From a virus (lineage: Duplodnaviria; Heunggongvirae; Uroviricota; Caudoviricetes), in IMG/VR virus record IMGVR_UViG_2617271086_000002, positions 1-34,445 of that record: 34,445 nucleotides of DNA; one strand, written 5' to 3'. The notes below the pieces were generated by a model that was given only the letters and a program-made list of their open reading frames with translations, was not told where the DNA came from and did no database searches. Below, one piece after another: positions 1 to 34,445 of this stretch. Position numbers and translations under genes: made by a program. How positions within the stretch are numbered: position 1 is the first letter of the stretch; each line of letters starts with the position of its first letter.

Positions 1-130
1 CGGCACATGCCGTCTGAACAATGTGGAGCCAGAAAAGTGGCTGCGTTACGTCATTGAACATATCCAGGACTGGCCGGCAAACCGGGTACGCGATCTGTTG
101 CCCTGGAAAGTTGATCTGAGCTCTCAGTAA
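1..130 (+). mobile_element. 3' end of an IS66-family insertion sequence: last 42 codons of a TnpC-type transposase (frame 2, stop TAA 128-130). The terminal inverted repeat and element boundary are not resolved.
   Basis: Translation of 2-127 gives GTCRLNNVEPEKWLRYVIEHIQDWPANRVRDLLPWKVDLSSQ, which matches the conserved C-terminal pattern of IS66-family TnpC. The ORF is open to the window edge. Confidence 0.55.
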
Positions 131-328
131 ATATCAATACGGTTCTGACGAGTCGCTTACTGATAGTGAGGCATCTGCCACGATAAGCGCAGAGAAATGA
201 TGCAGTGGTGGGCGGACTGGATTGATGAAAAGGTGGAGTGATCCACCTTAACCACTATCGAAGAGCACAAAGTCTTGCAATCCAGTGCAAAGCTTTGTGT
301 GTATCAGTTTTGTCCTGTGCGCCGGATA

Positions 329-763
329 TCAATTGGCCTGCTCCCCCGGAGGCGTAGGCCAGACGATATCGGGTGCAGTGACGGCTTTAGTCTTCGCTAC
401 TTCGTCAATATAGTCCATCCAGGCATTAAGGCTGGCTGATTCATCATCCGTTAACTTACGCCCCATGAGAAGCTTGGTTTGCCAGATAGTAATCCTTTGC
501 GTAGCTTCATCCAGCAAGAATTGTTTATGCACCTCAGCCTGAGCGATACGTTGCTCCTGCGTAGGCTCTGGTGCCGGGATAATAGTGACAACACCAGCAT
601 CATTGACCGTAAAAGTGCTTCCAGGTGCGCGGCTCATGGCTTTTATATACTCCTCGCTCGATACTTCTATCGCACTATCTGGAATAGACTCATAATTCAG
701 GTCCGGTGGGTAAAATAAGCCATCATGAAACTTATAAACATTTTTCATCTTTATCCCCCTCAA
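329..763 (-). CDS. Tail fibre assembly protein (Tfa-like chaperone)
   Basis: 144 aa ORF immediately downstream of the tail fibre gene, with ATGA start/stop overlap at 760-763. The C-terminal DIVWPTPPG motif resembles lambda Tfa-type proteins. Confidence 0.65.
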   Translation of the reverse strand: MRGIKMKNVYKFHDGLFYPPDLNYESIPDSAIEVSSEEYIKAMSRAPGSTFTVNDAGVVTIIPAPEPTQEQRIAQAEVHKQFLLDEATQRITIWQTKLLMGRKLTDDESASLNAWMDYIDEVAKTKAVTAPDIVWPTPPGEQAN

Positions 764-1656
764 TAACCAATCGCAATCCAGAAGCAGTTTTCATTAGGGC
801 CGCTGGGTGCATAGTTCTGAATTCTAATTTGTTGAGTCCCTTCTGGACCGACATTCATCGATGCATTTGACCCAGGGGCACCGCGTCCCCCGGTAGCCCA
901 GAGTATCGAGTTAGGAAATGCTACAGCCAGATTGTAGGCAGCATTACTGCCAGGGGGAGTTGAATGCACTCCCCACTGAATGACAATGGTTTGCGCACCG
1001 CCTCCGGCACCGATAATGGGGATTTTAATGTAACCAGTTCCGGCTAATAAACCACGGAATGAGGACATGTCCGGAATGCCATTAATTAACCCGGCACCAA
1101 CATCTCGTGTTGCAGCGGTCCCTAACTGGAGCGCATTTCGGAAGGCTGATACATCAGAAATATCAGCTCCATTAGCCGATTTCTGCATAGCTCCGGAGGC
1201 TTTATTTATCGTTTCTCCCAAACCAAGGTATGTGAGAATGTCAGCAATAGTCTTTTTCCCGATAATGTCACGTCCAACAGAAGTCAAATCAGTCAGCGCA
1301 GCTGTATCATTTCCAGTGAAATACGGGAGTTTATTTGCACCGGTTTCCAGCCCAGCTAATGCCGTCAGCGTGGCATCAAGGGCCTGGAAATCCTTCCCAA
1401 AAGCGGTTCCCATTTTGGAGATAAACCCGTTCAGGTCACCATCATCAAGCACGTCCAGCCCACTTTTGTTGGCTGTGTACTGCGCAAGCGCTGCCGCAAT
1501 AAAGCTGGCCTGTCGAATAACCTTATTGACTTGCGCACTGGATGCTTTCCCTGCTGTAAATCCGGATAAAAGCGCAGGCAACGCTTCCCATTCCTCCTGC
1601 GACATAACATTGGCATTTCGATCCGTTGCAAACGCTTTAAAGTCATTTTTCGCCAT
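760..1656 (-). CDS. Tail fibre protein (short side fibre). Start chosen at the ATG overlapping the upstream stop; the ORF track extends to 1674.
   Basis: Gly/Ala/Thr/Asn-rich ORF between a Mu gp48-like tail protein and the tail fibre assembly gene. ATGA coupling at 1654-1658. Confidence 0.65.
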   Translation of the reverse strand: MAKNDFKAFATDRNANVMSQEEWEALPALLSGFTAGKASSAQVNKVIRQASFIAAALAQYTANKSGLDVLDDGDLNGFISKMGTAFGKDFQALDATLTALAGLETGANKLPYFTGNDTAALTDLTSVGRDIIGKKTIADILTYLGLGETINKASGAMQKSANGADISDVSAFRNALQLGTAATRDVGAGLINGIPDMSSFRGLLAGTGYIKIPIIGAGGGAQTIVIQWGVHSTPPGSNAAYNLAVAFPNSILWATGGRGAPGSNASMNVGPEGTQQIRIQNYAPSGPNENCFWIAIGY

Positions 1657-2336
1657 CAGAGTAATACTCCCCATGCCCCTACATCAAAACCACTGATGAA
1701 TTCGTTATCCATATCAAAACCAAAAAATTTTGAGCCTTCCGATGGGGTTTCCACCGAAGGCGTTTCAATGCCACCCGCCCACACCCCGGCGGCTTTTACT
1801 GTGAGATACCCCTGTTTAATTGCCGCAATTAACTCACGCGATACATCTGAAATATCAGTATCAGGAAAGACCCAGACCGATATCGTCATGTCCTGGTTAT
1901 CGACTATCTGCATTCGCAGCCCGGATCCTGCTGTTGCAGCGTCAAGAATTGCTGGAAGCGAATCATTCCGTCCGTCCCAGTTATTAATCGCAATCTTCGC
2001 TTTAAGAATGACATGATAAGTTTCATCGCTGAGATACATGTATCCAGAATCAGGATCATATGGCCCCTGCCATACCCCCTGATCATATCCAAGCCCGTCG
2101 GTATCCCAGCTGAAATAGACACCTGAGATAGGCTGGCTGACAACACGGCTACGTCCGATCCACAATCCCAGAATGTCAAGTTGCACACCAACCGCAGAGT
2201 CAATATCAAATGCAGTAATCAGCCCTCTGGTGGCAGCCGCAACATCAATAAGCGGCCGGGTCATCAGATCAACATGCGCAAGAAATTTAGGTTTGGTGGC
2301 GTGGTAGTTCGTGATTAGTTCGGTGTATTTGCTCAT
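1656..2336 (-). CDS. Baseplate/tail-fibre-associated tail protein (Mu gp48 / DUF2313-like)
   Basis: 226 aa ORF (MSKYTELITNYHATKPKF...) lying between the baseplate J-like gene and the tail fibre gene, coupled to both. Confidence 0.55.
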   Translation of the reverse strand: MSKYTELITNYHATKPKFLAHVDLMTRPLIDVAAATRGLITAFDIDSAVGVQLDILGLWIGRSRVVSQPISGVYFSWDTDGLGYDQGVWQGPYDPDSGYMYLSDETYHVILKAKIAINNWDGRNDSLPAILDAATAGSGLRMQIVDNQDMTISVWVFPDTDISDVSRELIAAIKQGYLTVKAAGVWAGGIETPSVETPSEGSKFFGFDMDNEFISGFDVGAWGVLL

Positions 2337-3532
2337 GACTCCACCGTTATAACGATATTTTCCGGGGTACAGGACGCAGATTCGTTGTATCTGATATCAA
2401 TGTTTGATGACGACAAAGCCCCCGGGGATTTCCCAATCGTCAGTTCCTGAATATCGTAATAGCGTGCATTCCCGCCACTCACCACGCCAAGATTCGCCGG
2501 TGAGTAAATGCGACTTAAAAGGACCGAATCACCAATCATCAGACTATTGATATAGTCGGAAATAGCCTGCTGGATCTGCTGCCCTATCTGTGAGGTATAA
2601 CCCGTAAAAACTTTTAATTTAATCCGGGCATAAACAGGCACATCACTGGAACGCGAGAATTTGATTACATGGGGATTGCCGTATTTATCCGGAACCGTAA
2701 CGGATGTTGTACCGTGAGTGGCTGTACCCTGGCCTTTATTCCCTCTGATAGCCTGAGCAATATCCGTCACATCACCGCCATCCACAATTACAGCAACAGA
2801 GTGTGGCGGTAACCCGTTACCGTCCTCCGAACCAGTATCGTTTTCATAGAGTTTGTGGCGGGTTACACCGGTAACATTAGAAACAGCACCATCCAGTGCT
2901 TCAAATGGGGTTATTGATGGCAACGCAACACTTTGCGACTGACGGATACGTAACTCCGCGTCAGTTTCTGCCGGAGAGCCAACAGTAGCCGCAGCAGGAT
3001 TAGTTACCGAAACCCAGCCACGGGTTGGCGTATTAATTTCAGTGATAGTTCCAGGCAGCGCCGCCACTGCACCACTGACGGAACATTTTGCGGTCGCCAT
3101 CACTGTACCATCCACGCCGACCACCACTGAAGCAGGCAAACGCCATATCACATTATTACTGTCTTTCACGCTGCCATTAATGATGGTTGTTCCGGCAGTT
3201 CCTGTAAGAAGCAAATCAACCGTAGAGTTCGTCGCGCCTTTACGTGAAATACCATTTATTTTCACGTTACTGGTCAGTGCAGCCCCATAGCCGGTTGCCG
3301 GTGAAAAACAGTTGTAGACAGTTATCGCCATATTATTGGCATCATGAATCGCCAGCGCCATCAGAGCCACCATCTGGCCGTCTTTGCTGTCCGGTTCGAG
3401 GTAGGCATCACTGCCATAAATCTGCTGAAAATAGCTAATCAGGGTGCTGAGTATCGTCTGATAATCAGGCGCACTGATCCCCTCTGCGGTTACCTTTGCA
3501 GATAAACCAAGAGAATCAAGGTTCAGAGCCAT
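2333..3532 (-). CDS. Baseplate J-like protein (Mu gp47 / P2 gpJ family)
   Basis: 399 aa ORF in the canonical position after the gp25/W-like gene; size and composition fit baseplate J. Confidence 0.7.
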   Translation of the reverse strand: MALNLDSLGLSAKVTAEGISAPDYQTILSTLISYFQQIYGSDAYLEPDSKDGQMVALMALAIHDANNMAITVYNCFSPATGYGAALTSNVKINGISRKGATNSTVDLLLTGTAGTTIINGSVKDSNNVIWRLPASVVVGVDGTVMATAKCSVSGAVAALPGTITEINTPTRGWVSVTNPAAATVGSPAETDAELRIRQSQSVALPSITPFEALDGAVSNVTGVTRHKLYENDTGSEDGNGLPPHSVAVIVDGGDVTDIAQAIRGNKGQGTATHGTTSVTVPDKYGNPHVIKFSRSSDVPVYARIKLKVFTGYTSQIGQQIQQAISDYINSLMIGDSVLLSRIYSPANLGVVSGGNARYYDIQELTIGKSPGALSSSNIDIRYNESASCTPENIVITVES

Positions 3533-3885
3533 TACGCCTCCGATGTAACAGTCGTTATTCCATAAAGAGTGTCGATTTCAGCGGAAAACATGACACGTCG
3601 GGTCGTGGTATCCACCGTAGTATTGAAAGAGAGGATTGATTTAACGCCCCGCGTTTCGAGGATGCGCTTACGGATCGCCAGGTTGTAGGTTTCCGGCTTC
3701 TGCTTACCGAGTACGGACTGGATCCACGGAGTCCCTTCGGTGGTATCGAGAAACCATTGCCCATACCACAATTCGAATCGCGTTTTTACCGCCTGCGCCA
3801 CGGCCTCCGGTGAGTTAATCAGCCAGGTGTCATCACCGCTGCCAAAGGTATAATCGCCATCGGCGTCTTCACGTCTGTATCGCAT
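3532..3885 (-). CDS. Baseplate wedge protein (gp25 / GPW-like)
   Basis: 117 aa ORF between the spike and J-like genes, translationally coupled on both sides. Confidence 0.5.
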   Translation of the reverse strand: MRYRREDADGDYTFGSGDDTWLINSPEAVAQAVKTRFELWYGQWFLDTTEGTPWIQSVLGKQKPETYNLAIRKRILETRGVKSILSFNTTVDTTTRRVMFSAEIDTLYGITTVTSEA

Positions 3886-4640
3886 CAGTTAGGCGCTCCT
3901 GTGTTACCGCCGCCGGTCTGTACTCCGCCGTGCGTGTGCGTCATCAGGCTCTTACCACCAGCTTTTACATCGTTAGTCACCGTGACAGGGCCAAGCATCG
4001 TCGCGGTGCCGCCGCTTTCGCCCATCCCCTGAGAGAGATTCCCGTTTATTGTCACGTTGCCGTTTAGCGTGATGGTGGGTGATGTGATCGTGGTTCCTCC
4101 TTCTGCTGTCGCCGTCAGCGCGCCGGGGGTTTTAACCGTGATGTTATGGCCTGCGGCAACTTCCACAAACGCAGCGCCATCATCAGTACGCAGTTGCGCG
4201 GCGCTGGTGCTGATTCCGCTGATTTTCTGCGCCTGAGACTGCGGACCGACGATACAGAACGCATCCGATAAATCATGCATTCTGTCATCGACAGGCTCCT
4301 GTACCCCGCCGTTCTGCCACCAGAAATCGATGCAGCGATCGGCAAAAATCACCAGACATTCATCGCCGGCTTTCACCGGGAAAGTTAACGTGCAGCCGCC
4401 GCCGCGCGGAAATATCACCGGCACATCCACCAGCAGGGGTAATGTCGTCGACTGGTTGATTCCATTTGAGTCCGGCTCATAGCCTTTAATCGCAGGTTGA
4501 ACAACCACTGTTACCGTGTCCGGATCAAATGACTGGACGATGCCGGGCATAGAAACACGCAGCGCCGACATGACAGAGCCAGCAAGTCTTACATCGGCCT
4601 GTTCTTTGCTACCAAGTTGAGCGCTTAAAGAAACGGGCAT
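3885..4640 (-). CDS. Baseplate central spike protein (Mu gp45 / P2 gpV-like)
   Basis: 251 aa ORF with a Gly/Thr-rich C-terminus (..HTHGGVQTGGGNTGAPN) typical of spike proteins. GGAG ribosome-binding site upstream of the ATG at 4640. Confidence 0.6.
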   Translation of the reverse strand: MPVSLSAQLGSKEQADVRLAGSVMSALRVSMPGIVQSFDPDTVTVVVQPAIKGYEPDSNGINQSTTLPLLVDVPVIFPRGGGCTLTFPVKAGDECLVIFADRCIDFWWQNGGVQEPVDDRMHDLSDAFCIVGPQSQAQKISGISTSAAQLRTDDGAAFVEVAAGHNITVKTPGALTATAEGGTTITSPTITLNGNVTINGNLSQGMGESGGTATMLGPVTVTNDVKAGGKSLMTHTHGGVQTGGGNTGAPN

Positions 4641-4659: not shown

Positions 4660-4683
4660 AAAAAACCCGCCGGGTGGCGGGTT
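4660..4683 (-). terminator. Rho-independent terminator downstream of the DUF4282-like moron gene
   Basis: Minus-strand reading gives CCCGCC-ACCC-GGCGGG followed by a T6 run (plus strand: aaaaaacccgccgggtggcggg). It lies 17 nt after the stop at 4700. Confidence 0.7.
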
Positions 4684-4699
4684 CATTATTGAAGTTTCA

Positions 4700-4939
4700 T
4701 TACTGCTTGTTTGCTTCTAACGCTTCAGCTATTCGGCGAAGATACTCATTGTTTTTAAATGAAACCATGATGCACTCAAAGAATATTCGGCAAAATACAG
4801 CACATAACAAAAGCACTAAAGCGCCAGCAGCCTTCCCATTAACAAACGTTATAATGGCGGCAACAACCAGAAGTAACATTGTGATGCCATACAGAACGTT
4901 GATGATTTTTGGAGTTATTAATTTATCAAATCCGAACAT
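4700..4939 (-). CDS. Small inner-membrane protein (DUF4282-like) encoded by a moron
   Basis: 79 aa ORF (MFGFDKLITPKIINVLYGITMLLLVVAAIITF...) with two hydrophobic helices. It has its own AAGGA ribosome-binding site, a candidate promoter upstream (perfect TATAAT on minus = plus 4976-4981) and its own terminator. Sequence is AT-rich. Confidence 0.6.
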   Translation of the reverse strand: MFGFDKLITPKIINVLYGITMLLLVVAAIITFVNGKAAGALVLLLCAVFCRIFFECIMVSFKNNEYLRRIAEALEANKQ

Positions 4940-4975
4940 GTGACAAATTCCTTATCGTGAAAGTAGAAGTATCAC

Positions 4976-5003
4976 ATTATAATTACGAGTGATTAATCAA
5001 CAA
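4976..5003 (-). promoter_or_regulatory. Candidate sigma70 promoter for the DUF4282-like moron
   Basis: Minus-strand TATAAT (plus 4976-4981) with a TTGTTG -35-like hexamer 16 nt upstream, about 37 nt upstream of the ATG at 4939. Confidence 0.4.
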
Positions 5004-5078
5004 TCTTTTTGCATGGAAAGGAACCGATGATTTTCGGCGCATCCATGCTGTTCTGCAGAAGCTGGACGCCAATGTAAT

Positions 5079-5414
5079 TCACTTCACCTTCCGGCAATCG
5101 TACGTCCAAAATTCCCGAGGCTCGTCCATATTTTTGCGGATAACTTCAACGTTGAGGATCGCTTTTTTGTTTCGTTTGATGTAGTCCATACCTAACCAAC
5201 GTCCAGTATTAGGATCAGGTAACATCCATTGCATCATGACATTATCGAAATCGTCTTTTTGTTTCAAAAAGGTCATTTTTTGTGTTTCTGGCTTTTGACC
5301 ATTGATGTGCATGAGGCCATCATTACCAGCATCAAAGCGGAATGGTCCGCACTGCGTTGCCGCCGAAACGGTTAACGGCAGGGCCAAGAATAAACAAAAA
5401 AATACTTTTTTCAC
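5079..5414 (-). CDS. Secreted/periplasmic protein of unknown function (moron) with a cleavable signal peptide
   Basis: 111 aa ORF beginning MKKVFFCLFLALPLTVSA|ATQ (Sec-type signal peptide, AXA-like cleavage site). GTG start overlaps the hub gene stop (GTGA), with a GGAGA ribosome-binding site 6 nt upstream. AT-rich, unlike the flanking tail genes. Confidence 0.55.
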   Translation of the reverse strand: MKKVFFCLFLALPLTVSAATQCGPFRFDAGNDGLMHINGQKPETQKMTFLKQKDDFDNVMMQWMLPDPNTGRWLGMDYIKRNKKAILNVEVIRKNMDEPREFWTYDCRKVK

Positions 5415-6445
5415 TCTACATCTCCGACTTTGTCCAAAGTGCCTTTTGCCAATAGTTCTTTGCCACCTTTAGCCAGGCAAAGCAGGTCCATATACCACGC
5501 CTGACCTCGGGTGTCGCCAGTATAATCAATGCTGCCCACAATGTAATCACCGTCAGTATTAATGCTGGCAGGCTGTGACATGCCTGGCAGACCGTTAACG
5601 TAGAGATTACCGTCGCTTTCAGACTCATCCAGTCGTGCTGGCGATTTCGCTACCTGGTCATTACTCAAAGAGGCACGGTATACAGATGCCTGATCCAGAC
5701 GAATAAGCCCACCGAGCTTAATATTTGGATTAATCAGACATCTGACATTTACGCCAGCTCCCATCGTCTGCTGTGGCATACCGATAAGCCCGGTGTTAGC
5801 ATTCAACACCGTAGCAACACCAATATATTTATCTTCAGGAACAATATTTACCAGATTATTTTCATACCACCAGTTAGCTTTACACTGCCCTGCGATATGA
5901 TTCATCAACCTTGATGTGTTTTGATAAACAACGCGACCTCTGGGAAATACCGTTTCCGGCATGTCAGGAACTGCACCGGATTCGATGCCATATGGTTCGA
6001 ATGATTTCATACCCAGACTGAAAAGATCGCTGTACTTCCAGCCAGCTGCCACTGTGGTTTTCACACTTGCGTTCAGGTGACCTTCCCAGCTGTCAATACA
6101 CTGCAACATGATCCAACTGTCTGTGGCATTATCTTTACCAGTGACAGTAAAACGGATATCTCCATTGAATATCATACCAACGTTTTCATCAGGATAATTA
6201 CCTGCTGCATCCGGTTGCCCCTTGTATCCGGCAATAACCTGTATACGCGAAAACTCCTTTTGCATAATCCGGTTCTGAGTGGTAGGGGACAGGTTATAAA
6301 CCTTAAAATTTCCAACGAATCCATTAAATATGCTCGCAGGCATTTTCTGAATATTGAAAGTGACTTTAAGCTCAGAAATTTTTATCCCGTCGCCCTTATC
6401 ATCAACAAGCAATAATTCAAAGTGACGCATCCAGTTTTTCGACAT
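5411..6445 (-). CDS. Baseplate hub / tail protein (Mu gp44-like, putative)
   Basis: 344 aa ORF between the tape measure-proximal genes and the spike gene in a Mu-like tail gene order. Confidence 0.5.
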   Translation of the reverse strand: MSKNWMRHFELLLVDDKGDGIKISELKVTFNIQKMPASIFNGFVGNFKVYNLSPTTQNRIMQKEFSRIQVIAGYKGQPDAAGNYPDENVGMIFNGDIRFTVTGKDNATDSWIMLQCIDSWEGHLNASVKTTVAAGWKYSDLFSLGMKSFEPYGIESGAVPDMPETVFPRGRVVYQNTSRLMNHIAGQCKANWWYENNLVNIVPEDKYIGVATVLNANTGLIGMPQQTMGAGVNVRCLINPNIKLGGLIRLDQASVYRASLSNDQVAKSPARLDESESDGNLYVNGLPGMSQPASINTDGDYIVGSIDYTGDTRGQAWYMDLLCLAKGGKELLAKGTLDKVGDVE

Positions 6446-6746
6446 TGTTACTCCGTGAAAACATAGAGGTGTGAGAGCGTTCCAAGATCGAATTGCGTCT
6501 TTCCTGCCCTGCCACGTCGCAGAGTACCACCAGCGAAAACCCGAGATTCATATATCGATACTGCGCCAGCAGGTCAGCCCCCGTAATCATCGGAATGCCT
6601 GAGATAATGGCGGAACCATTGCTGTCAGCAAGATCCAGAACCCAATACTCTCCGCGCCAGATGACAGACAGCTGATAAACCGTACCGTTAATTGTGGTGG
6701 CAAAAGTCTGATTGTCAGCAACCAGTGGGATTTCTACGGCCTCCAT
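6417..6746 (-). CDS. Tail protein, hypothetical
   Basis: 109 aa ORF in the tail operon, co-oriented and tightly packed with its neighbours. Confidence 0.4.
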   Translation of the reverse strand: MEAVEIPLVADNQTFATTINGTVYQLSVIWRGEYWVLDLADSNGSAIISGIPMITGADLLAQYRYMNLGFSLVVLCDVAGQERRNSILERSHTSMFSRSNNVEKLDASL

Positions 6747-6749
6747 GAA

Positions 6750-7400
6750 TCACCTTCCCAGAAATAAATTGCTCAGATACCCATCGACAGTGGTGACACC
6801 TTTTTGCGCTATCTGTGGCAGCGATTTCAGAATGGAATTATTCGGCGGCACCGTTGTTTTGGTGCCTGTATTCTGCACAGCAGACGTTCCGACTCCCTCG
6901 GTCATATTGTTTTTCGAGGCAACCCTGATTGACTGCGTGGAGGTAATAATCACCTCCCTGAGGGTAAGGGTCGCCAGAAGCACATTTTCACTACTCTTAT
7001 CGGTCGTGACCTCCAGCGTTTTTATCAACATATTGTTGTAAATACGCTTGCCGGTTGTCACATCGAAAGGAATACGATTCCGCTGCAGGTTAAGCAGTTC
7101 CTGATACAGTTCTTTCGGGCTCAGACCCAGTAAACTGGTAGCCGTCAGGTTACTGGCAAAATCAAGCAGCGATCCGCCTCCGGAAAAACCGGTTTCCATC
7201 ACAACCTCAGAAGGGCGCCTGAATGCGTGTTCTGATATATAACCAGCGCCCTCACCACTGGCACCAGCATTCGTGGGCTGTTCAACCGGATGTTCCGTAA
7301 TTTCCAGGGCGTCAGTGTGCTTTTCGGTAATAACCACATCAGGAATAATGATTCCTATTGAGCGGGTTCGCTGCTGCAGTAAAACAGATAAAAAGTCCAT
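6750..7400 (-). CDS. Tail/baseplate assembly protein, hypothetical
   Basis: 216 aa ORF immediately downstream of the tape measure gene, with start/stop abutting it at 7400. Confidence 0.4.
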   Translation of the reverse strand: MDFLSVLLQQRTRSIGIIIPDVVITEKHTDALEITEHPVEQPTNAGASGEGAGYISEHAFRRPSEVVMETGFSGGGSLLDFASNLTATSLLGLSPKELYQELLNLQRNRIPFDVTTGKRIYNNMLIKTLEVTTDKSSENVLLATLTLREVIITSTQSIRVASKNNMTEGVGTSAVQNTGTKTTVPPNNSILKSLPQIAQKGVTTVDGYLSNLFLGR

Positions 7401-9406
7401 TACGCAGGTCCTTTCAATTGCTGTACCGCCCTGGCATTTACAGCCCCCTGCTTGTCAGCGATCAGATTAGCCGCCTCCTGAGGGTTGTTAACTCCATGAA
7501 CATTTATAACAGTCTGCTGGTTAAGGCTGCCAGCGGCGGCCTGATACGCCAGCGGGCTGTTCCAGTTTGAATAACCTTCTTTGCGCGCCATCGACTGCAT
7601 CAATGCTCCCATAGTCTGGGGATCTGTAAGATTCAATATTGCATTCGGTGATACTCCCATCCATTTCGCAACATCCTGTGCATACTTTTTCGGATCGTTG
7701 TTATCACCTGCCGGGGCCCAGGTACTGACAATATCCTGAATAGTCTGTAATGCCCGTCCGGTTGTTTTCCCGGTAAAGTAACGCATGAGCTGGTTTTTCA
7801 TCGCCTCCCAGCCCTCAAGAGCTGATTCGAAAAACCGGAACCCTTTACCGCTCACCGGGCGAATGTTCCCTGGGTTATTGTTGCGATCAGCAAGAGTACC
7901 GCCGCCGGGGATGTCGGGCTGGACGTTGGAGCCATGCACTACACCGTTACTCTGTCCCTGCCGGACAACTTTACCGGGTCCCCCGTGCAACCAGTCCATC
8001 CACGCAGGCCATTCACGGACCTCACTGACATCCCTGCGTCCGATATCTGTTTTTATACCAATAGCAGCCAGCGTGTCGCCGATAATTCGCTTCGTATACC
8101 TCAGTGAAGATTTTGCGCTATCGGCAATATTTTCTCTGTCACTAACAATATAGCCCGCGTAAAGCGCCCACAATTTAAGCCATGGTGGGACCGGTAAACC
8201 TGATATTTTTCCGAAAGCCCCCAGAACCTTGGATACCCAGACACCCGCGATGAATGTACCGAGGATTTCCAGTGCATTTTGCCAGCCGCCAACACCATCT
8301 TTTAGTTCCAGAAGGTGATCACGAAGCCAGGTGATCGCATCCTTCGCTTTATCTATTGCCGGTTGCCATTTTTCCCAGTCGATAAGACTGTTACCGCCTT
8401 CTTTCCATGTTTTGTAGTCTTCCCACAAGAGACCGAGAGCAACGATCAGACCGGTAATCAGCCCTATAGGTGACATCCAGAAAGTAGAGTTAAGTATCCG
8501 CATGGCGACAACCAGACCGCCGATAACCTCTATCAGGGTTTTCGTTTCGGCATCCAGTTTCCCCCACCACTCGATGATATCTCCGACACCATCGACTATC
8601 CGAAATGCTACCCGCCCGACTATCTCACCCAGCCAGAGGATCCCCTTTATGACCTTTGTGATGGTGACTTCAATTTTGGGAAAATTTTCAATTATCTTTT
8701 TGCGCAGGTTATCAATCTGCCCCGCCAGTCCGTCCGCAAGATTCGATCCGATTTTGTCCCGCGCCATCCCGGCCATTTCACCGAGCGATTTCAGCGAGGT
8801 CATAAACCGGTTTGACGATAAGGCAGCCTGATCGGCATTAAATCCGATCGCTTTCACCATTTCTGAATACTGAGCGCTGAACTGCCCCACTCCGCGACGC
8901 ATAGCCATCAGGGTATTTTCGTCAATGCCCAGCATCTGCGCATACTGGTTAGCCCGGTAATACGGCATGCTGCTGAGCTTCTGGCCGACGCCCGTAAAGA
9001 TAGCGGCCATGTCGCGCATGTTACCGCTGGCGTCACGGGTCTGTACCCCCAGACGATTCAGAAATCCCTCCGCCCCAGGATTATTACGAATAAACCGGGA
9101 GAGGTTTTCCAGAGAAGATCGCGCAGCGTCCACGCTGCCGCCAACCTGCGAAACCGCATAGCCAATAGACTGAATTCCCTGGACTGTCGCGCCGGTGCGC
9201 TGTGACGCCCAGTAAAGATTATCCAGGCCGGAGGCAATCTTAGCCGTAAAGGCCACCACGGACAGTGCAGCTCCTTCAACGGCCAACCCCATTTTGATGA
9301 CATTTGCAGTTGTACCGGCGAGGACAGAACAGAACTTTTTCGCGCCTGCCTCATCCACACTGAAGCCAAGCGAGACGAGGAAATCTTTAATAGTTTCAGC
9401 GTTCAT
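7400..9406 (-). CDS. Tail tape measure protein. Start set at the ATG at 9404-9406, which has a GGAGAGAGG ribosome-binding site; the ORF track uses an upstream TTG at 9427.
   Basis: 668-675 aa ORF with an Ala/Gly-rich helical N-terminus and hydrophobic central segments, located after the tail chaperone. Confidence 0.8.
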   Translation of the reverse strand: MNAETIKDFLVSLGFSVDEAGAKKFCSVLAGTTANVIKMGLAVEGAALSVVAFTAKIASGLDNLYWASQRTGATVQGIQSIGYAVSQVGGSVDAARSSLENLSRFIRNNPGAEGFLNRLGVQTRDASGNMRDMAAIFTGVGQKLSSMPYYRANQYAQMLGIDENTLMAMRRGVGQFSAQYSEMVKAIGFNADQAALSSNRFMTSLKSLGEMAGMARDKIGSNLADGLAGQIDNLRKKIIENFPKIEVTITKVIKGILWLGEIVGRVAFRIVDGVGDIIEWWGKLDAETKTLIEVIGGLVVAMRILNSTFWMSPIGLITGLIVALGLLWEDYKTWKEGGNSLIDWEKWQPAIDKAKDAITWLRDHLLELKDGVGGWQNALEILGTFIAGVWVSKVLGAFGKISGLPVPPWLKLWALYAGYIVSDRENIADSAKSSLRYTKRIIGDTLAAIGIKTDIGRRDVSEVREWPAWMDWLHGGPGKVVRQGQSNGVVHGSNVQPDIPGGGTLADRNNNPGNIRPVSGKGFRFFESALEGWEAMKNQLMRYFTGKTTGRALQTIQDIVSTWAPAGDNNDPKKYAQDVAKWMGVSPNAILNLTDPQTMGALMQSMARKEGYSNWNSPLAYQAAAGSLNQQTVINVHGVNNPQEAANLIADKQGAVNARAVQQLKGPA

Positions 9407-9635
9407 TATCCTCTCTCCATTTCTCAATGCGCCGCTGGTTATCCGCTTTTACCGCCAGATGGTCATTCAAGAGAGCAATGTCGTACAAATCGACAGAGCC
9501 ATCTTTAAGTGCTGTATAAGGAATTAACCCGGCGTCAACCGGATTGAGAAGGTAAGACAGCCCGTCCGGCAGGCTGTTAAACGTCAGCCCTGTTGCAGGC
9601 TCTGCGCCGTGCTGGTAAGGGGTGTAGGCAAAAAA
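9396..9635 (-). other. Programmed -1 ribosomal frameshift site and GT-type extension of the tail assembly chaperone
   Basis: The mRNA heptamer U_UUU_UUG (plus 9629-9635) is in the zero frame as AAU UUU UUG, 15 codons before the stop. The -1 frame is then open for 77 codons (AYTPYQHGAEPATGLTFNSLPDGLSYLLNPVDAGLIPYTALKDGSVDLYDIALLNDHLAVKADNQRRIEKWREDNER) and stops at 9396-9398, just past the tape measure ATG. Confidence 0.6.
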
Positions 9636-10036: not shown

Positions 10037-10039
10037 GTA

Positions 10040-10480: not shown

Positions 10481-10490
10481 TCACTTCCCC

Positions 10491-11636: not shown

Positions 11637-11639
11637 AGC

Positions 11640-25094: not shown

Positions 25095-25381
25095 GACTTA
25101 ATCTTCCCCTCCTTCAGCAGTATCGCCTGCGTCCTGATCACGCCTTCGAGGTGGTAAAGCCTGGCGTCTTTGTTGTCGAGATTATGGGTGCGTCGGTCGA
25201 TTTCATCGTGACACGCGCTACAAGCCCATGCGCCGATCAGGTCGTCAGGCTTCATTCCCGTTCCGCAAATTCCAGCCATCCGGTAATGTGCCAGAACTGT
25301 AGTTTCAGGGTTGCCATTGCATACGCCGTAAATACGTACCTGGCATTCTCTGCCGCGTGCTTCTTTGCGTAGGTTAGCCAT
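25091..25381 (-). CDS. YbcO-like (DUF1364) Cys-rich putative nuclease
   Basis: 96 aa ORF closely resembling the DLP12 YbcO pattern (MANLRKEARGRECQVRIYGVCNGNPETTVLAH...CSACHDEIDRR). Confidence 0.65.
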   Translation of the reverse strand: MANLRKEARGRECQVRIYGVCNGNPETTVLAHYRMAGICGTGMKPDDLIGAWACSACHDEIDRRTHNLDNKDARLYHLEGVIRTQAILLKEGKIKS

Positions 25382-26103: not shown

Positions 26104-26272
26104 CGTCTTCTTCCTCGTACATTGAGCTATTCGGATCGCTCATCAGTTCTGCGCAGCAATCGGAGCACACGTGAACTTCCAGCACATGCAGCTTCTGACC
26201 GCAGTTAGCGCACGTTAAAGCTCGCTCGACGCTTTCTTTCTGGTATTGAAGGGATTGGGATGGGCTAAGCAT
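26096..26272 (-). CDS. ninF: NinF (58 aa; below the ORF-track cutoff)
   Basis: Manual translation gives [58 protein letters not shown], which fits lambda NinF. It is coupled at both ends. Confidence 0.7.
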   Translation of the reverse strand: MLSPSQSLQYQKESVERALTCANCGQKLHVLEVHVCSDCCAELMSDPNSSMYEEEDDE

Positions 26273-26630
26273 TATTGGCGTCCTGCATCATGAGAAAGAC
26301 AATCATGGCGGCGCGGAGTGGGTTTTCATCTTGAGTCATATGATATGGGGTACTATCACTGCCAACTTTTCTATGCGCTGCCTTCCATAATCCATTTTCT
26401 GGCGCTGGAATAATGCCAATTCTGTTCTCTACGATAATCGGCTCTGCGTCTGATGGGCTTTTATAGTAATCAACCGTTTTTATTGCATAACCAGTTTCGT
26501 CATCCCACTCAACACCAACGATTGATGTTCCCAACTTTGCGATTTCGCAATCTTCGGGAGCAAATCCACAGCAAATTGCCACTCGCTTGTTAATTTCAAA
26601 ATCACTTAACTGTGAATAATCCATTGTCAT
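26265..26630 (-). CDS. Nin-region protein (NinX / DUF2591-like, putative). Start at the ATG overlapping the ninE stop.
   Basis: About 121 aa ([34 protein letters not shown]...). ATGA-type overlap at 26627-26630. Confidence 0.5.
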
Positions 26631-26803
26631 TTCCTCGCACGATGTCTTAGCCACCGGATATCCCACAGGTGAGCCGTGTAATTGAAGGTTTTTACGTCAG
26701 ATTCTTTTGGGATTGGCTTGCGTTTATTTCTGGAGCGTTTCGTTGGAAGGCATTTGCAGTTTTCGCAGATTATGTCGGTGAAACTTCGTCGCTGTCGTCT
26801 CAT
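26627..26803 (-). CDS. ninE: NinE
   Basis: [58 protein letters not shown] resembles lambda NinE. ATGA overlap with ninB. Confidence 0.7.
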
Positions 26804-27210
26804 TCGTACCTCCTGTCGGTAAATCTGACACCCTGACCAATAGCCCATGCTGTTGTGTACTCGATCAGACTTGCCATACGCTTCACGCTCATCTGCGCGC
26901 TGCTTTCGCGAATGTTGACGTATTCGCCTTCAAGGCCGGGTAAAACATCAGCTTCCTGTTTTGTTGCCACTGCATGACCGCTGATCAACAAAACCTTCCA
27001 TTGTTCTGGTTTTAGCCATTTATCGCACCATTGAACCTGACGAGCGATATCCGCCAGCATCGCGTGAAATTTTGCGTTCTGGTCAAGGTTGCGCTTGTAG
27101 TCAGTAATGCGGATGGTGACTGGCTTGTCTTTATCGAGTGGTGTTGCGAGGATGGCATTTATTGCGGCTTGCTGTTGTTGCTTAGTTCGGAGGAAGATTG
27201 TTTGCTTCAT
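26800..27210 (-). CDS. ninB: NinB (Orf-family recombination mediator)
   Basis: 136 aa ORF with a NinB-like pattern (..[22 protein letters not shown]..) at the start of the nin block. Confidence 0.7.
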
Positions 27211-27212
27211 CG

Positions 27213-27551
27213 TTACTCCTTCACTTTGACTCCAGCAGCGCGGATGTTTTCCTCATAAGCATCCATTGCATCACCGAAGCCATTGGAATAATCAACAGTA
27301 AACCCTTTGGCTAATGCTTCTCTGCTGTCGATAAACTTTGGCGCGGTTATTTCAATAGCTGCTCGCGATGCCTGCCATAAAGCCCACCACTCATTTAAGG
27401 AGTGACGAATATCCATGCTTGAAAATGCGAAGTACCTATCACCATTTCTTGCCTCGGTTATCATCTCGAATGGTAATCTCAATTTTTTGGCAACGTATTC
27501 CTCAAACTGCTTTCTTGATTCGCCCATATCAATCCCCGTTAGTCGTTTCAC
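27213..27551 (-). CDS. Hypothetical early protein
   Basis: 112 aa ORF co-oriented between the replication and nin genes. Confidence 0.4.
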   Translation of the reverse strand: MKRLTGIDMGESRKQFEEYVAKKLRLPFEMITEARNGDRYFAFSSMDIRHSLNEWWALWQASRAAIEITAPKFIDSREALAKGFTVDYSNGFGDAMDAYEENIRAAGVKVKE

Positions 27552-27744
27552 TCACGAATCTGACAAAACCAGCCATGTTAATTTGCATGAGTTTTTTCAA
27601 CACTTTGTCTCGCCGGCTACGTTTTGGTTTTGGCCTGTGGTTGAATCTTTCACAAACTGGAAGGCTTGATGATTTCCAGTACCTATTACGCCTTGCTCCA
27701 TCTTCCGCCATATCGGCATGAATAAGGTCTGCGAGTGTGCTCAT
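27529..27744 (-). CDS. Hypothetical small basic protein. Start at the ATG at 27742-27744, which has a GGAGAGG ribosome-binding site.
   Basis: 71 aa ORF with a Lys/Arg-rich centre. Confidence 0.35.
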   Translation of the reverse strand: MSTLADLIHADMAEDGARRNRYWKSSSLPVCERFNHRPKPKRSRRDKVLKKLMQINMAGFVRFVSETTNGD

Positions 27745-27758
27745 ATTCACCTCTCCAG

Positions 27759-27941
27759 TTACATTGGTTTTGTAATGTTGCTAGTCATCTTACGAATAAA
27801 AAAATGCGTACGTAGCTTTGCTTCCCACATGTAAATCTCCTCAAGGCGAGATAAATCTACGAATACCGGACCTTTGTAATCTGGTCTTGATGCCCTTATG
27901 TATGAGCTAATAGTTTGTGCATCTTGCTCGTCAAGATTCAT
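27759..27941 (-). CDS. Hypothetical small protein
   Basis: 60 aa ORF, co-oriented and tightly packed. Confidence 0.3.
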   Translation of the reverse strand: MNLDEQDAQTISSYIRASRPDYKGPVFVDLSRLEEIYMWEAKLRTHFFIRKMTSNITKPM

Positions 27942-28134
27942 GACTTCCCTCTCTAACAGATTTCAGGTTATTCCACTCCGTTACCGCACTGCGATAATTC
28001 GCGGCCGCCACAGCGGCGTGGTTAGCACAGTAGATTTGGCACACGTTCTCCATGTCGAATATTGTCGGTGATTTTCCGCATTTACATTTTTTGGCACGCG
28101 GTGCGTCTGAACACATTCCGTTAACGGTGTCCAT
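27931..28134 (-). CDS. Hypothetical small Cys-rich (zinc-ribbon-like) protein
   Basis: 67 aa ORF with C-x-C ... C-x3-C spacing. Confidence 0.35.
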   Translation of the reverse strand: MDTVNGMCSDAPRAKKCKCGKSPTIFDMENVCQIYCANHAAVAAANYRSAVTEWNNLKSVREGSHES

Positions 28135-31919: not shown

Positions 31920-31940
31920 GGGGCTTTCGCCCCTTTTTTA
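31920..31940 (+). terminator. Rho-independent terminator of the repressor transcript
   Basis: GGGGC-TTTC-GCCCC followed by TTTTTTATTT, immediately after the c2 stop. Confidence 0.7.
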
Positions 31941-31945
31941 TTTCC

Positions 31946-32060
31946 CGTTAAAAATCAAAGACAAACTAAATTCACGCCCATAAAATTAAGTTTTCTTCAA
32001 AAATGAACTTGACCAATAAATTAAGAAGTCTTAAATTTAAGCCATCAGCAGGACGCTGGA
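31946..32060 (+). promoter_or_regulatory. OL/PL region (operator-like sites upstream of the N-like gene)
   Basis: AT-rich region containing the operator-like sequence ATTAAGAAGTCTTAAATT and related half-sites, between the c2 terminator and nutL. Confidence 0.45.
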
Positions 32061-32083
32061 AGCCAAACGGAACAGATTGGCAG

Positions 32084-32123
32084 GCTCTTTAACATCGACG
32101 GACTCTCAACCTAACCGTTGAGA
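32084..32123 (+). promoter_or_regulatory. Candidate nutL (boxA plus boxB-like hairpin)
   Basis: GCTCTTTAACA (boxA-like, 32084-32094) followed by a hairpin TCTCAAC-CTAACC-GTTGAGA (32104-32123). The loop motif CTAACC is shared with the nutR candidate. Confidence 0.5.
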
Positions 32124-32233
32124 CCAGAACTTGAGTGGTTTTGGGGATGGCGCGAATTGCAGCTGCAAGACAGCGATCGAGAAGATAAGCACCTCGACGC
32201 GTCATGCGCCAAAGCCACTTAAAGGAGACCATC

Positions 32234-32506
32234 ATGGTAACCATTGTCTGGAAAGAATCCAAAGGTACGGCAAAAAGCCGCTACAAAGCTCGCAGAGCAG
32301 AACTTATTGCCGAGCGACGCAGTAATGAAGCACTGGCGCGAAAAATTGCGCTAAAGCTCTCTGGTTGCGTCAGGGCAGATAAAGCAGCATCACTCGGAAG
32401 CCTTCGCTGCAAGAAGGTAGATGAATGCAGTGGAAGTATTTGCCTGCCAAACGTAGCCATTTACGCGGCAGGCTACCGGAAATCAAAACAACTGACAGCG
32501 AGGTAA
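32234..32506 (+). CDS. N-like early antiterminator (P22 gp24 family). Start at the ATG at 32234, which has an AAAGGAG ribosome-binding site.
   Basis: 90 aa ORF with an N-terminal Arg-rich motif (GTAKSRYKARRAELIAERR) and a C-terminus LPNVAIYAAGYRKSKQLTAR resembling P22 gp24. Confidence 0.7.
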   Translation: MVTIVWKESKGTAKSRYKARRAELIAERRSNEALARKIALKLSGCVRADKAASLGSLRCKKVDECSGSICLPNVAIYAAGYRKSKQLTAR

Positions 32507-32509
32507 GTG

Positions 32510-32734
32510 ATGAATCAGACATACATTCCATCATGCTTGAGAAATCTGCCAAAGCAGAAAGCAAAGCCCCGCAAGCAAGCCATAAAGGACGCTAAGGCAG
32601 AAGTTATCGATAAGGCCATTAACCTGCTTAGAGAGGAGTTAAGGAGTGAAAAGCTCAACGGAATGCTGATGCCTTATCAGCGCGGATATCTTTCGGCGAT
32701 TAGTAAGCTGGAAGTATTGAAGAGTGAATTATGA
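32510..32734 (+). CDS. Hypothetical Lys-rich small protein (first gene of the accessory cassette)
   Basis: 74 aa ORF with a GAGG ribosome-binding site, starting 4 nt after the N stop. Confidence 0.45.
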   Translation: MNQTYIPSCLRNLPKQKAKPRKQAIKDAKAEVIDKAINLLREELRSEKLNGMLMPYQRGYLSAISKLEVLKSEL

Positions 32735-33423
32735 ACTATCTGGAATTTCCGGATGGTTCATTGTTTTGGCAGCAAACCACTTATTTGAGAGGAATTAATA
32801 TGTCATCAATCCGCTTAACTACGAGAATGAAAGAGGAAATCGCTCGTAACGCTTTAATTAAGCCTGGGGTTTTCACTGAACTTGAAGAAGTAACAAAGTT
32901 AAAGAACCAGCTTGCACTTGACGCCAGAGTTATTGCGTTTGGCGGTAAAAAGAAAACTGAGGAAGTGGATCAGTTATCATCCAAGTTGGTAGCTATAAGT
33001 GAAGAACTTGAAAAGATGGGATGTTCATTTTACTCATACGATGTTAGTTCTACTTCAATTTATCTTACTGTATCTGGCAGAAGGGTTGGATGGCTTTCAT
33101 ATGGGGAAGACGGCAACGGCGAAGATATATTGCTCCCTACTCCGACCAAAGATAAATGCATGTTTGACGCAGAACACGAAATAACAAAAAGGTTTGATGA
33201 AATCTGCGCATTGCAACAAAAACTTGAAGCCAAGAAAAAGGATATCGAATCAAATGTATGGGCTGCTTTGAACTCAGTCACAACAGTTAAGCGACTTATT
33301 GAAGTTTGGCCTGAAAGCAAAGAATTGCTACCAAAAGAAGCAGATAAAGCAAGTACAGCACTTCCTGCTTTACGGGTAGAAGATTTGAATAAGATGATTG
33401 GACTTCCTTCCGAGGCCGCATAG
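32731..33423 (+). CDS. Hypothetical AT-rich accessory protein (230 aa), predicted soluble with helical/coiled-coil character; function unknown
   Basis: Long ORF with ATGA coupling to the upstream gene. An alternative start at 32800 has a GAGAGGA ribosome-binding site. Sequence is visibly more AT-rich than the flanking N and c2 genes. The stop codon lies inside a terminator hairpin. Confidence 0.55.
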   Translation: MNYLEFPDGSLFWQQTTYLRGINMSSIRLTTRMKEEIARNALIKPGVFTELEEVTKLKNQLALDARVIAFGGKKKTEEVDQLSSKLVAISEELEKMGCSFYSYDVSSTSIYLTVSGRRVGWLSYGEDGNGEDILLPTPTKDKCMFDAEHEITKRFDEICALQQKLEAKKKDIESNVWAALNSVTTVKRLIEVWPESKELLPKEADKASTALPALRVEDLNKMIGLPSEAA

Positions 33424-33438
33424 TCGGCCTTTATTTTT
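33413..33438 (+). terminator. Rho-independent terminator overlapping the stop codon of the 230 aa gene
   Basis: AGGCCG-CATAGT-CGGCCT followed by TTATTTTT. Confidence 0.6.
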
Positions 33439-33462
33439 GGCATAAATACACAGAGGTGAATA

Positions 33463-33714
33463 ATGACAGTAGGAAGAATGAAAAGGCCATGGAATGTTGT
33501 TGGCGCTGGATTTAACGATGATGGGGTTTATTTCACGTTTGACGATACAACCATCCATCGAGGTGATGTGAGATTGATGGAGGCAGCTCCTGATTTGCTC
33601 GAAGCTCTGCAAGCGATGCTAAACAAGGCATACAAGCAAAACTGGAATGACCATTATCCTGATGAAGTATCGAAAGCACAGTCAGCGATCAGCAAAGCTC
33701 TTGGAGGTGAGTGA
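33463..33714 (+). CDS. Hypothetical protein (83 aa)
   Basis: ORF in the early-left operon between the 230 aa gene and the cIII-like gene. Confidence 0.4.
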   Translation: MTVGRMKRPWNVVGAGFNDDGVYFTFDDTTIHRGDVRLMEAAPDLLEALQAMLNKAYKQNWNDHYPDEVSKAQSAISKALGGE

Positions 33715-33960
33715 CGCGACATTACGTGATTACTTCGCAGCAAAGGCTAGGCAAGCAATGATTAGCAATCCATCGATTATCGATAATGATTCTGATTGAG
33801 ATGTTAATTATGCAGCAAGCGCTGCATATAAGTTTGCAGACGCAACGCTCAAAGCTCGCGAATAAGCACTGTGTATTCATTCCAACGAGTGAATACACGG
33901 AGCAATGTCGCTCGTAACTAAACAGGAGCCGACTTGTTCTGATTATTGGAAATCTTCTTT

Positions 33961-33986
33961 GCCCTCCAATGTGAGGGCCTTTTTAT
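33961..33986 (+). terminator. Rho-independent terminator upstream of the cIII-like gene
   Basis: GCCCTC-CAATGT-GAGGGC followed by CTTTTTAT. Confidence 0.6.
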
Positions 33987-34050
33987 ATGCATACCAATAA
34001 CGCTTCACTTGAGGCGTTTTCGTTATGCAATCAAATATAAGGAGTTACCC

Positions 34051-34185
34051 ATGATGCACTTTCAGCTCGCGGGTAGCGGCGTCATGTCCGCTTTCTACCC
34101 GCACGAATCTGAATTATCACGCCGAGTTAAACAATTAATCAGAGCAGCAAAGAAACAACTGGAGGCGTTATGCGCAATGAAATAG
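34051..34185 (+). CDS. cIII-like small protein (putative FtsH inhibitor), 44 aa
   Basis: MMHFQLAGSGVMSAFYPHESELSRRVKQLIRAAKKQLEAL parallels lambda CIII (..IAGWPVAGCPSESLLERITRKLRDGWKRLIDIL). AAGGAG ribosome-binding site 6 nt upstream. Confidence 0.5.
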   Translation: MMHFQLAGSGVMSAFYPHESELSRRVKQLIRAAKKQLEALCAMK

Positions 34186-34322
34186 TCATTAATCACCAGA
34201 TGCTTCGTGCTGCACAGAACAAAGCAGTAATAGCCAGATTTATTGGTGATTCCAAAATGTGGCTTGAAGCAAATAAAGCGATGAAATCAGCTATCAACCT
34301 TCCGTGGTATCGCAGGAAATGA
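34170..34322 (+). CDS. Kil-like small protein (putative host division inhibitor), 50 aa
   Basis: MRNEIVINHQMLRAAQNKAVIARFIGDSKMWLEANKAMKSAINLPWYRRK. The IARFIGDSKMW segment resembles the lambda Kil core as recalled. GGAGG ribosome-binding site upstream. Confidence 0.4.
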   Translation: MRNEIVINHQMLRAAQNKAVIARFIGDSKMWLEANKAMKSAINLPWYRRK

Positions 34323-34445
34323 GTTTTACAGATAACTGGTCAGACGAAGAATTCATTCGTCAGATGAAAGAATTAATCGGTAACGAAGGAGATATTCATG
34401 TCACTTGCAACCACAGTGAAGGAGAGCAAGTTACAGAGACGCATG
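34319..34445 (+). CDS. Partial ORF continuing beyond the window (early-left operon gene, unknown)
   Basis: ATG at 34319 overlapping the kil-like stop (ATGA); reads MSFTDNWSDEEFIRQMKELIGNEGDIHVTCNHSEGEQVTETH... with no stop before the window end. Confidence 0.3.
   Translation, partial: MSFTDNWSDEEFIRQMKELIGNEGDIHVTCNHSEGEQVTETH

Follow-up and report, generated by a model that had tools for sequence, protein, structure and literature searches.

A mosaic lambdoid prophage with SEN34-type contractile-tail genes and an HNH gene inserted in its small terminase gene

The IMG/VR virus record IMGVR_UViG_2617271086_000002 is a stretch of 34,445 nucleotides of Caudoviricetes DNA that was analyzed at its full length and is referred to here as the window. 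Called genes occupy 92.6% of it and fall into two large blocks (Table 1): virion genes at ~1423-20150, on the minus strand, and lambdoid early and lysis genes at 21200-34445. A listing of the open reading frames (ORFs) combined with Pfam scans gives the gene order c2 / cro-cII-O-DnaB-nin-Q-tRNAs-S-R-Rz-Rha-(HNH)-TerS-TerL-portal-head-sheath-tube-TMP-baseplate-fibre, in which TMP is the tape measure protein and TerS and TerL are the small and large terminase subunits. The window is an ordinary mosaic temperate prophage of the Escherichia coli type, with control genes like those of lambda and P22 joined to a contractile-tail virion module. In all likelihood it holds the greater part of an integrated temperate phage that belongs to the lambdoid supercluster and has SEN34-type (Brunovirus-like) contractile-tail virion genes, an assessment that includes the readings of its mosaicism, its HNH gene and its integrase remnant given below.

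To judge from sequence similarity, the terminase, head and contractile tail constitute one co-inherited virion module of the SEN34 type. All 21 proteins encoded from TerL to the DUF2612 protein have homologues in SEN34 (47-97% amino acid identity), the identity being 83-97% for the head and connector proteins, recognized by the Pfam families Major_capside, Phage_cement, DUF2213, Phage_Mu_F and Phage_portal_3, and 81-91% for the baseplate wedge and spike proteins (1656..4640). The gene of the Mu F-like protein adjoins the portal gene. The tail genes were assigned from the Pfam families E217_GP41, Pam3_gp18, Dit_like, Phage_TAC_15, KPP10_Orf10 (tube), DUF3383 (sheath) and Phage_tail_terminator_9, and from the names given by PGAP to their relatives. 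An earlier note on this DNA had proposed a myovirus-type tail with sheath, tube and baseplate J, and the presence of DUF3383, KPP10_Orf10, Baseplate_J and the spike bears this out. An SfV/Mu-like origin for this tail was considered and rejected, as tblastn searches with 22 virion proteins returned no match in SfV; HK97 and lambda gave no match to these proteins either. At the nucleotide level, 1423-20690 shares 97.0% of its bases with the prophage in E. coli 30EVA2 (97% over the baseplate wedge and spike genes) and 8174-20342 is 95.3% identical to phage vB_EcoM-611R5 (611R5). The nearest solved relatives of TerL are chain 8dkr_B and the chains of the Sf6 'Gene 2 protein'. Sf6 packages by a headful mechanism, and packaging by the window prophage is probably headful. 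In contrast to TerL (96% amino acid identity), TerS (Pfam Terminase_2) lacks a detectable SEN34 homologue; it is 67% identical to the TerS of 611R5 (20154-20708 versus L005:1-630). The small terminase gene thus appears to have been swapped separately from the other genes of the virion block.

The early and lysis block is a patchwork of P22-type c2, cro and right operator (OR), an N protein with the arginine-rich motif (ARM) of PDB 1nyb, replication genes of the HK97 type (97.9% nucleotide identity over 27937-30917), a nin region of the HK97/Kapi1 type, a non-lambda Q, two tRNAs, and S and R of the lambda type. The collinear lambdoid early map is complete: every element has a Pfam match and stands in lambda order, with nucleotide matches to lambda, P22 and HK97. 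Patch by patch, nucleotide identity is 97-98% to Kapi1, 94-99% to HK97, 95% to lambda over S-R and 83% to P22 over c2-cro, and patches that are 93-99% identical are common to the window and to lambda, HK97 and P22-like phages. These early and lysis alleles circulate among phages of E. coli and Salmonella with all three tail morphologies (Kapi1, CUS-3, HK97, mEp235, P22, lambda and Stx phages).

The earlier note had assigned lambda-type lysis and nin genes and P22-identical c2 and cro genes to this block, and only the lysis cassette stands as described. S and R differ from lambda at few residues (Table 1), and the S-R-Rz DNA is 95.0% identical to lambda over 22543-23811. The nin region matches lambda only in fragments of ~140-170 nucleotides around ninE/ninF, its NinB is 36% identical in amino acids to lambda NinB, and the segment that encodes RusA, YbcO and Roi (24548-26238) is 98% identical in DNA sequence to Kapi1 and 94% to HK97. 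A further segment, 27351-27953, is 97% identical to Stx phages, in which the small nin ORFs recur; of the four small ORFs of the nin region, one is DUF7301 and three belong to PHROGs of no known function. The Q protein is 15-16% identical to the Q proteins of lambda (15%), P22 and Kapi1 (16%). Two tRNA genes, the only matches to Rfam at gathering threshold, lie between the PR'-like promoter and the holin gene, as they do in Kapi1.

C2 and Cro are not P22-identical, being 93.5% (202/216 amino acids) and 98.4% (60/61) identical, respectively, to their P22 counterparts. The match at 100% of amino acids for both is Kapi1, to which the DNA is 98.4% identical over 30595-32425. OR differs from that of P22 at only four positions (76/80 nucleotides identical), the c2-cro DNA is 83.3% identical to P22, and residues 1-53 of C2, which include the helix-turn-helix, have one difference from P22 C2. 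The recognition regions of repressor and Cro, and the operators, are thus predicted to be of P22 immC specificity. Similarity to P22 extends through the OL region and stops at 32098, just after a boxA-like sequence. Because it ends there, and because residues 18-39 of N are identical to the 22-residue N peptide of PDB 1nyb_A, the immunity region is itself a hybrid that combines P22-type c2, cro and operators with a different N/nut system. A literature search for the ARM peptide string of N found none; PDB 1nyb, the N-boxB complex of phage phi21, matched instead. N is only 41% identical in amino acids to P22 gp24 and cII only 21% identical to P22 c1, and there is no mnt-arc-ant immI region within the window.

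Taken together, these genes suggest how the prophage would operate. C2 and Cro would act at P22-type operators, as indicated by their homologues and by the sites themselves, the N protein would act through its 1nyb-type RNA-binding motif at nut sites, and cII and cIII would govern the lysogeny decision. Replication would depend on O and the DnaB-type helicase, and the Q antiterminator would read from PR' through the two tRNA genes into S-R-Rz/Rz1 and on into the virion operon. The mosaic itself would be the product of recombination, chiefly at gene boundaries, among lambdoid phages that meet in one cell as co-residents or by co-infection.

Such shuffling of modules at gene boundaries is textbook behavior of lambdoid phages, and for this reason the mosaic in itself matters little. 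The earlier note called the window highly mosaic, with modules from different phage groups. The mosaicism is real, but there are fewer separate sources than envisaged, since terminase, head and tail are one SEN34-type module; the observation was thus confirmed in part, and its interpretation is partly supported. No single described phage matches the window end to end, a match that the note had named as refuting its view, and coverage of a 25-kb query by any one phage record peaks at 62%. Positions 1-25000 are covered to at least 80% by 11 complete E. coli genomes; none covers at least 80% of the right 25 kb (9446-34445). With the best phage record at 62% and no genome reaching 80% of 9446-34445, the exact combination of alleles appears to be absent from the collections searched, whereas the architecture itself is common, and novelty is limited to a new allele combination within a known, common kind.

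The junctions between patches were also said to coincide with terminators or hairpins. We listed 26 similarity breakpoints in 20000-34445 relative to eight references. Five lie within 30 nucleotides of a predicted terminator, versus 3.2 expected (permutation test, P=0.21), and 15 lie within 30 nucleotides of a gene end, versus 5.1 expected, a number that was reached in none of 20,000 random sets. Gene ends, rather than terminators, therefore mark the junctions. Single coincidences of junction and terminator are nevertheless real, after the lysis genes (22130-22149), after the helicase gene (28166-28190) and at the hairpins upstream of cIII (33961-34018), and some breakpoints fall within genes, as in the tail fibre gene at 1423.

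SEN34 was described as having lambda-like genes and Myoviridae morphology and as the prototype of a lambda cluster of its own (PMC5261728). It is Brunovirus SEN34, placed in the lambda-supercluster cluster 'temperate 26' of Casjens and Grose, as cited in PMC5261728. It resembles the window in joining a lambdoid early region to a myovirus virion and in its late gene order from TerL to the fibre. It differs in that its late DNA is only 75-85% identical, its TerS is of a different type and it has other alleles throughout immunity, replication, nin, Q and lysis; unlike the window, it has an O-acetyltransferase gene and an intact integrase gene and no HNH gene at terS. Homologues of SEN34 for 21/21 proteins and the sheath, tube and Baseplate_J domains place the virion with Brunovirus. 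By convention of the ICTV (International Committee on Taxonomy of Viruses), members of a genus share ~70% nucleotide identity over the full genome length. SEN34 covers 55% of 1-25000 at 75-85% identity and the early half is unrelated, short of genus-level identity for a window that is itself incomplete.

The nearest relatives by late DNA (95-97% nucleotide identity) are the argW prophages of E. coli (30EVA2, PC6, PSS-04 and others) together with 611R5. The argW prophages have the architecture of the window, with intS beside the tail fibre genes, and PC6 also has the same arrangement of HNH and terS, at 99.7% identity. Relatives in closed E. coli chromosomes are located at tRNA-Arg, with intS beside the tail fibre genes, lambdoid early genes, and torI at the far end. 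This tRNA-Arg/intS site is the locus of the CPS-53/KplE1 remnant of K-12. Each of these prophages, and 611R5, has early alleles of its own, the early region of 611R5 being wholly non-lambdoid, and they differ from the window in the fibre tip, hub, plug, segments of the TMP and moron slot; 30EVA2 in addition has gtrABC. A literature search on the vB_EcoM-611R5 series found no paper that names those myovirus records. A contractile-tail virion combined with a P22/lambda-like control region is therefore an established lineage, represented by SEN34 and the E. coli argW prophages, and not a surprising hybrid.

For the early half a close known relative is Kapi1 (Escherichia phage vB_EcoP_Kapi1), a P22-like podovirus that is integrated at argW (PMC8787464). 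Patches with 97-98% nucleotide identity extend over cII, immunity, N, DnaB, nin, the tRNAs and S-R-Rz. Kapi1 differs from the window in its P22-like podovirus virion module, in Q, in the N-terminal part of O and in a cII-proximal segment, and its immI-type Arc/antirepressor region has no counterpart in the window.

The HNH-terS cassette is the only item in the window with some independent value. Its nuclease matches Pfam HNH_3 and zf-His_Me_endon, the latter being a region of homing endonucleases with a zinc-binding loop. The HNH protein, which also matches PHROG HNH endonuclease families, begins with the original start of terS, its codons 1-11 (21207-21175) being the first codons of that gene fused in frame, and its body lacks any methionine upstream of residue 112. 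It ends with GGAGGTGTGA; one base further on, terS codons 1-16 begin a second time from a TTG and read TTG AAA CAG CTC ACA CCT AAG CAG GAA CTG TTC TGC AGG GAA TAT TTA. The 3' end of the HNH gene and positions 20661-20708 supply a new ribosome-binding site (RBS) and this divergent copy of terS codons 1-16; the TTG start was inferred by alignment with alleles that lack the homing endonuclease gene (HEG). In one such strain, E. coli S51, the flanks are 99-100% identical, the insert is missing, and terS begins ATG GCA AAG CTC ACA GAC AAA CAA GAG CTG TTT GCC CGT GAG TAC CTG AAA GAT. Comparison of the empty site (L007:1562-1609) with the occupied site defines the insertion to the nucleotide. Codons 1-16 of the HNH-linked terS have 60% nucleotide identity to S51 and encode nearly the same peptide; beyond them identity is 99-100%. 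The insertion follows codon 10 or 11 of terS in two allele backgrounds, and in two IMG/VR contigs the captured N-terminus is MALTDKQEMF, that of the 30EVA2-type terS allele.

The distribution of the HNH gene is patchy. HNH and terS occur together in only 14 of 5426 complete E. coli genomes, while others, such as S51, match the insertion flanks only, and the gene is missing in SEN34, 611R5, 30EVA2 and S51. Scanning IMG/VR with the HNH protein identified ten relatives with at least 76% amino acid identity (L021-L030), the next relative having at most 49%. The replacement terS tract follows HNH in all ten, in at least two terS allele backgrounds; in four of them, HNH has diverged (71-84% nucleotide identity) and the downstream terS is largely unrelated. 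The closest HNH homologues in phages (40-47% amino acid identity) are scattered, beside genes for polymerase or internal virion proteins in T7-like and other phages. A PDB sequence search with the HNH protein gave no match, and an exact-pattern scan for the replacement terS tract in one-genome-per-species contigs found none. In L015 (IMGVR_UViG_2703719347_000006), a further contig recovered by its tract alone, ~60 nucleotides of the HNH 3' end and the replacement terS start are located at ~2550-2780, directly after Rz; this contig looks like a deletion derivative that has lost the HNH body and the Rha region.

Because the protein is of the HNH_3 family, its distribution is patchy, the empty and occupied sites are precisely defined and a replacement terS tract is linked to it, the simplest reading of the HNH gene is a free-standing homing endonuclease gene inserted in frame after terS codon 11, which borrows the start codon of terS. 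Free-standing phage HNH homing endonucleases (HNH_3/zf-His_Me_endon) have the same family of catalytic motif, occur sporadically among near-identical genomes, are inserted into a conserved essential gene and have a linked divergent copy of the flanking target. Unlike them, the window HNH is fused in frame to codons 1-11 of its host gene, has no start of its own and restarts terS with its own GGAGG-TTG. The replacement terS 5' end, in which ~40% of the positions in codons 1-16 differ, probably makes the allele resistant to cleavage; the cassette would have the conserved 5' end of terS as its target, and terS codons 17-34, conserved across every allele, are a candidate right homology arm. Put together, and held tentatively, with somewhat less than even confidence, the cassette would be an active homing element of temperate phages that captures the start of terS, re-initiates terS from its own RBS, carries a cleavage-immune terS 5' end, cuts the conserved 5' sequence of terS in competing HEG-less SEN34-like prophages and moves as a gene drive from prophage to prophage in at least two lineages of terS.

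An HNH ORF does lie next to terS, which is the classic location of a gp74-type gene, and the earlier note had concluded that packaging by the terminase depends on HNH. A packaging co-factor of the HK97 gp74 kind, required for terminase cleavage at a cos site, is nevertheless quite improbable. The HNH family is a different one (HNH_3/zf-His_Me_endon), BLASTP gave no alignment of the window HNH with HK97 gp74, and TerL, whose matches are 8dkr_B and the Sf6 gene 2 protein, is not significantly similar to the HK97 TerL (gp2); on these grounds HK97-type packaging was rejected. SEN34 and vB_EcoM-611R5, both deposited as phage genomes, are without HNH, and SEN34 makes plaques and particles. Near-identical terS alleles, such as that of S51, also lack HNH, which is an insertion within terS rather than a conserved gene in its own right. 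The presence of an HNH gene beside terS is thus no automatic sign of a packaging factor, and the natural pair of empty and occupied sites can be used to study the spread of homing endonucleases among prophages.

Two explanations for the element as a whole were weighed against the reading as most of an integrated SEN34-type temperate phage. It is highly improbable that the window is an assembly chimera in which a P22-like podovirus prophage was joined to an unrelated myovirus prophage. The early half is indeed 97-98% identical to the podovirus Kapi1 and the late half matches myoviruses, but the joint Q-S-R-Rz-Rha-terS-TerL is contiguous in the closed E. coli chromosomes of 30EVA2 (where 182-24561 of the window is covered in one place), PC6, PSS-04 and BY63 and in IMG/VR contigs, and SEN34 itself combines lambdoid early genes with a myovirus virion. 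That the element is a decaying, locked-in prophage rather than a functional phage is possible, if on balance doubtful, and here the left end is the issue. The intS gene is reduced to its last 19 codons, adjoining the end of an IS66-family element, and the gtrABC genes of relatives are missing. The IS66-family insertion has removed or split intS, and such a truncation may deprive the prophage of autonomous excision. However, measured against SEN34, 611R5, HK97 and lambda, the ORFs for virion, lysis, replication and regulation have kept their full length, the gene content is dense (92.6%, as given above), the missing part of intS may be located past the insertion sequence, outside the window, and the prophage of strain R18 likewise lacks gtr beside an annotated intS.

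Several points do weigh against the preferred reading, most of a SEN34-type prophage with a homing cassette. The window is cut at both ends, so that the att sites, xis and the remainder of intS lie beyond view. The viability and packaging mode of the prophage are predictions. TerS is not of the SEN34 type, and the pac/cos specificity therefore cannot be read from SEN34, whose own packaging sequences its authors could not identify (PMC5261728). The endonuclease activity and the target site of the HNH protein are likewise putative, and the divergent terS 5' tract may simply be donor sequence carried along by co-conversion rather than an immunity allele under selection.

Table 1. Positions of genes and other features in the window
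Feature	Position	Strand	Evidence or remark
IS66-family transposase 3' end and terminal repeat	1..160	+	stop at 128-130; 42 amino acids versus Pfam DDE_Tnp_IS66_C, E=3e-15
intS remnant, last 19 codons (DKRREMMQWWADWIDEKVE, then stop)	183..241	+	aligns to the intS 3' end of E. coli 30EVA2; annotated as intS in many genomes
tail fibre assembly protein	329-763	-	Pfam Caudo_TAP
tail fibre	760-1674	-	Pfam Gp53-like_C
baseplate wedge and spike	1656..4640	-	DUF2612, Baseplate_J, 117-aa wedge protein, spike with Apex motif (Pfam)
moron-like pair in baseplate operon	4663..5414	-	GC low, 0.43-0.45
strong terminator hairpin	4684-4663	-	ends the moron-like pair
DUF4282 membrane protein	4700-4939	-	phrog_12129, function unknown
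111-aa protein	5079-5414	-	N-terminal signal-like hydrophobic stretch; phrog_3443, function unknown
tail genes	5411..12206	-	hub, plug, Dit-like, tape measure with lytic transglycosylase end, chaperone, tube, sheath, neck terminator
head and connector genes	12178..18529	-	adaptors, DUF4054, major capsid, cement, DUF2213, Mu F-like head morphogenesis, portal
large terminase TerL	18529-20151	-	96% amino acid identity to SEN34 TerL
small terminase terS	20154 to TTG 20708-20706	-	TTG 6 nt after GGAGG; PGAP picks ATG at 20726 instead
HNH_3 homing-type endonuclease, 165 aa	20710-21207	-	Pfam HNH_3, E=1.5e-9; zf-His_Me_endon, E=5e-7
Rha-family regulator	21435..21977	-	ORF11CD3 domain (Pfam); preceded by terminator 22149-22130 (terminator scan)
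Rz	22323-22790	-	60.6% amino acid identity to lambda
embedded Rz1 lipoprotein ORF	22364-22570	-	
R	22787-23263	-	154/158 amino acids (97.5%) versus lambda
S	23247-23570	-	104/107 amino acids (97.2%) versus lambda
tRNA-Thr(TGT)	23813-23888	-	
tRNA-Asn(GTT)	23894-23968	-	
PR'-like promoter	24054-24025	-	near-consensus TTGACA-18-CATAAT
Q antiterminator	24032-24550	-	Pfam Phage_antitermQ (PF06530), not lambda or P22 type
nin region	24541..28134	-	NinH, RusA, YbcO, Roi-like ANT/Rha protein, NinF, NinX, NinE, NinB, four small ORFs
terminator after helicase gene	28190-28166	-	
DnaB-type helicase	28216-29592	-	Pfam DnaB_C
O	29589-30410	-	Pfam Phage_rep_O
53-aa ORF		-	listed between O and cII
cII	30591-30887	-	Pfam Phage_CII
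cro	31003-31188	-	Pfam P22_Cro
OR	31189-31268		between cro and c2
c2	31269-31919	+	Pfam HTH_3, Peptidase_S24; terminator 31918-31935
PL operon	31936..34445	+	OL/nutL region, N, accessory ORFs, cIII, kil
N	32204-32506	+	Pfam N_peptide
75-aa ORF		+	PL operon, listed after N
Nmad5-domain protein	32731-33423	+	Pfam Nmad5
83-aa ORF		+	PL operon, listed after the Nmad5 protein
two terminator hairpins	33961-34018		listed before cIII
cIII	34051-34185	+	Pfam cIII
kil	34170-34322	+	Pfam Lambda_Kil

At the left end, similarity to related prophages begins only at 181/182, and the 22 bases 161-182 match neither the IS66-family end nor intS. The intS remnant is the one visible lesion of the window. In 30EVA2, gtrABC, an operon for O-antigen glucosylation, lies between intS and the tail fibre assembly gene (L002:11061-14004) and is absent from the window at 242-328. 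E. coli R18, in which intS of the prophage is annotated, has the same gtr-less joint at 99.3% identity. The similarity to 30EVA2, 611R5 and PC6 starts at 1423, the distal part of the fibre (below 1423) and the assembly gene having been swapped relative to these elements; R18 matches the distal part of the fibre at 99.3%.

The earlier note expected novel cargo at the junctions, an expectation that found no support. The accessory and junction ORFs tested all belong to existing PHROGs of unknown function, PADLOC gave no match for 10 accessory proteins, and the gtrABC genes to be expected beside intS are those that are absent. The pair of genes at 4663-5414 is the clearest moron-like feature of the window, and its slot holds different ORFs in SEN34, 611R5 and PC6. 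In the PL operon, 33859-34445 is 99% identical to HK97, and the Nmad5 protein, named for nucleotide modification associated domain 5, is also present in Kapi1.

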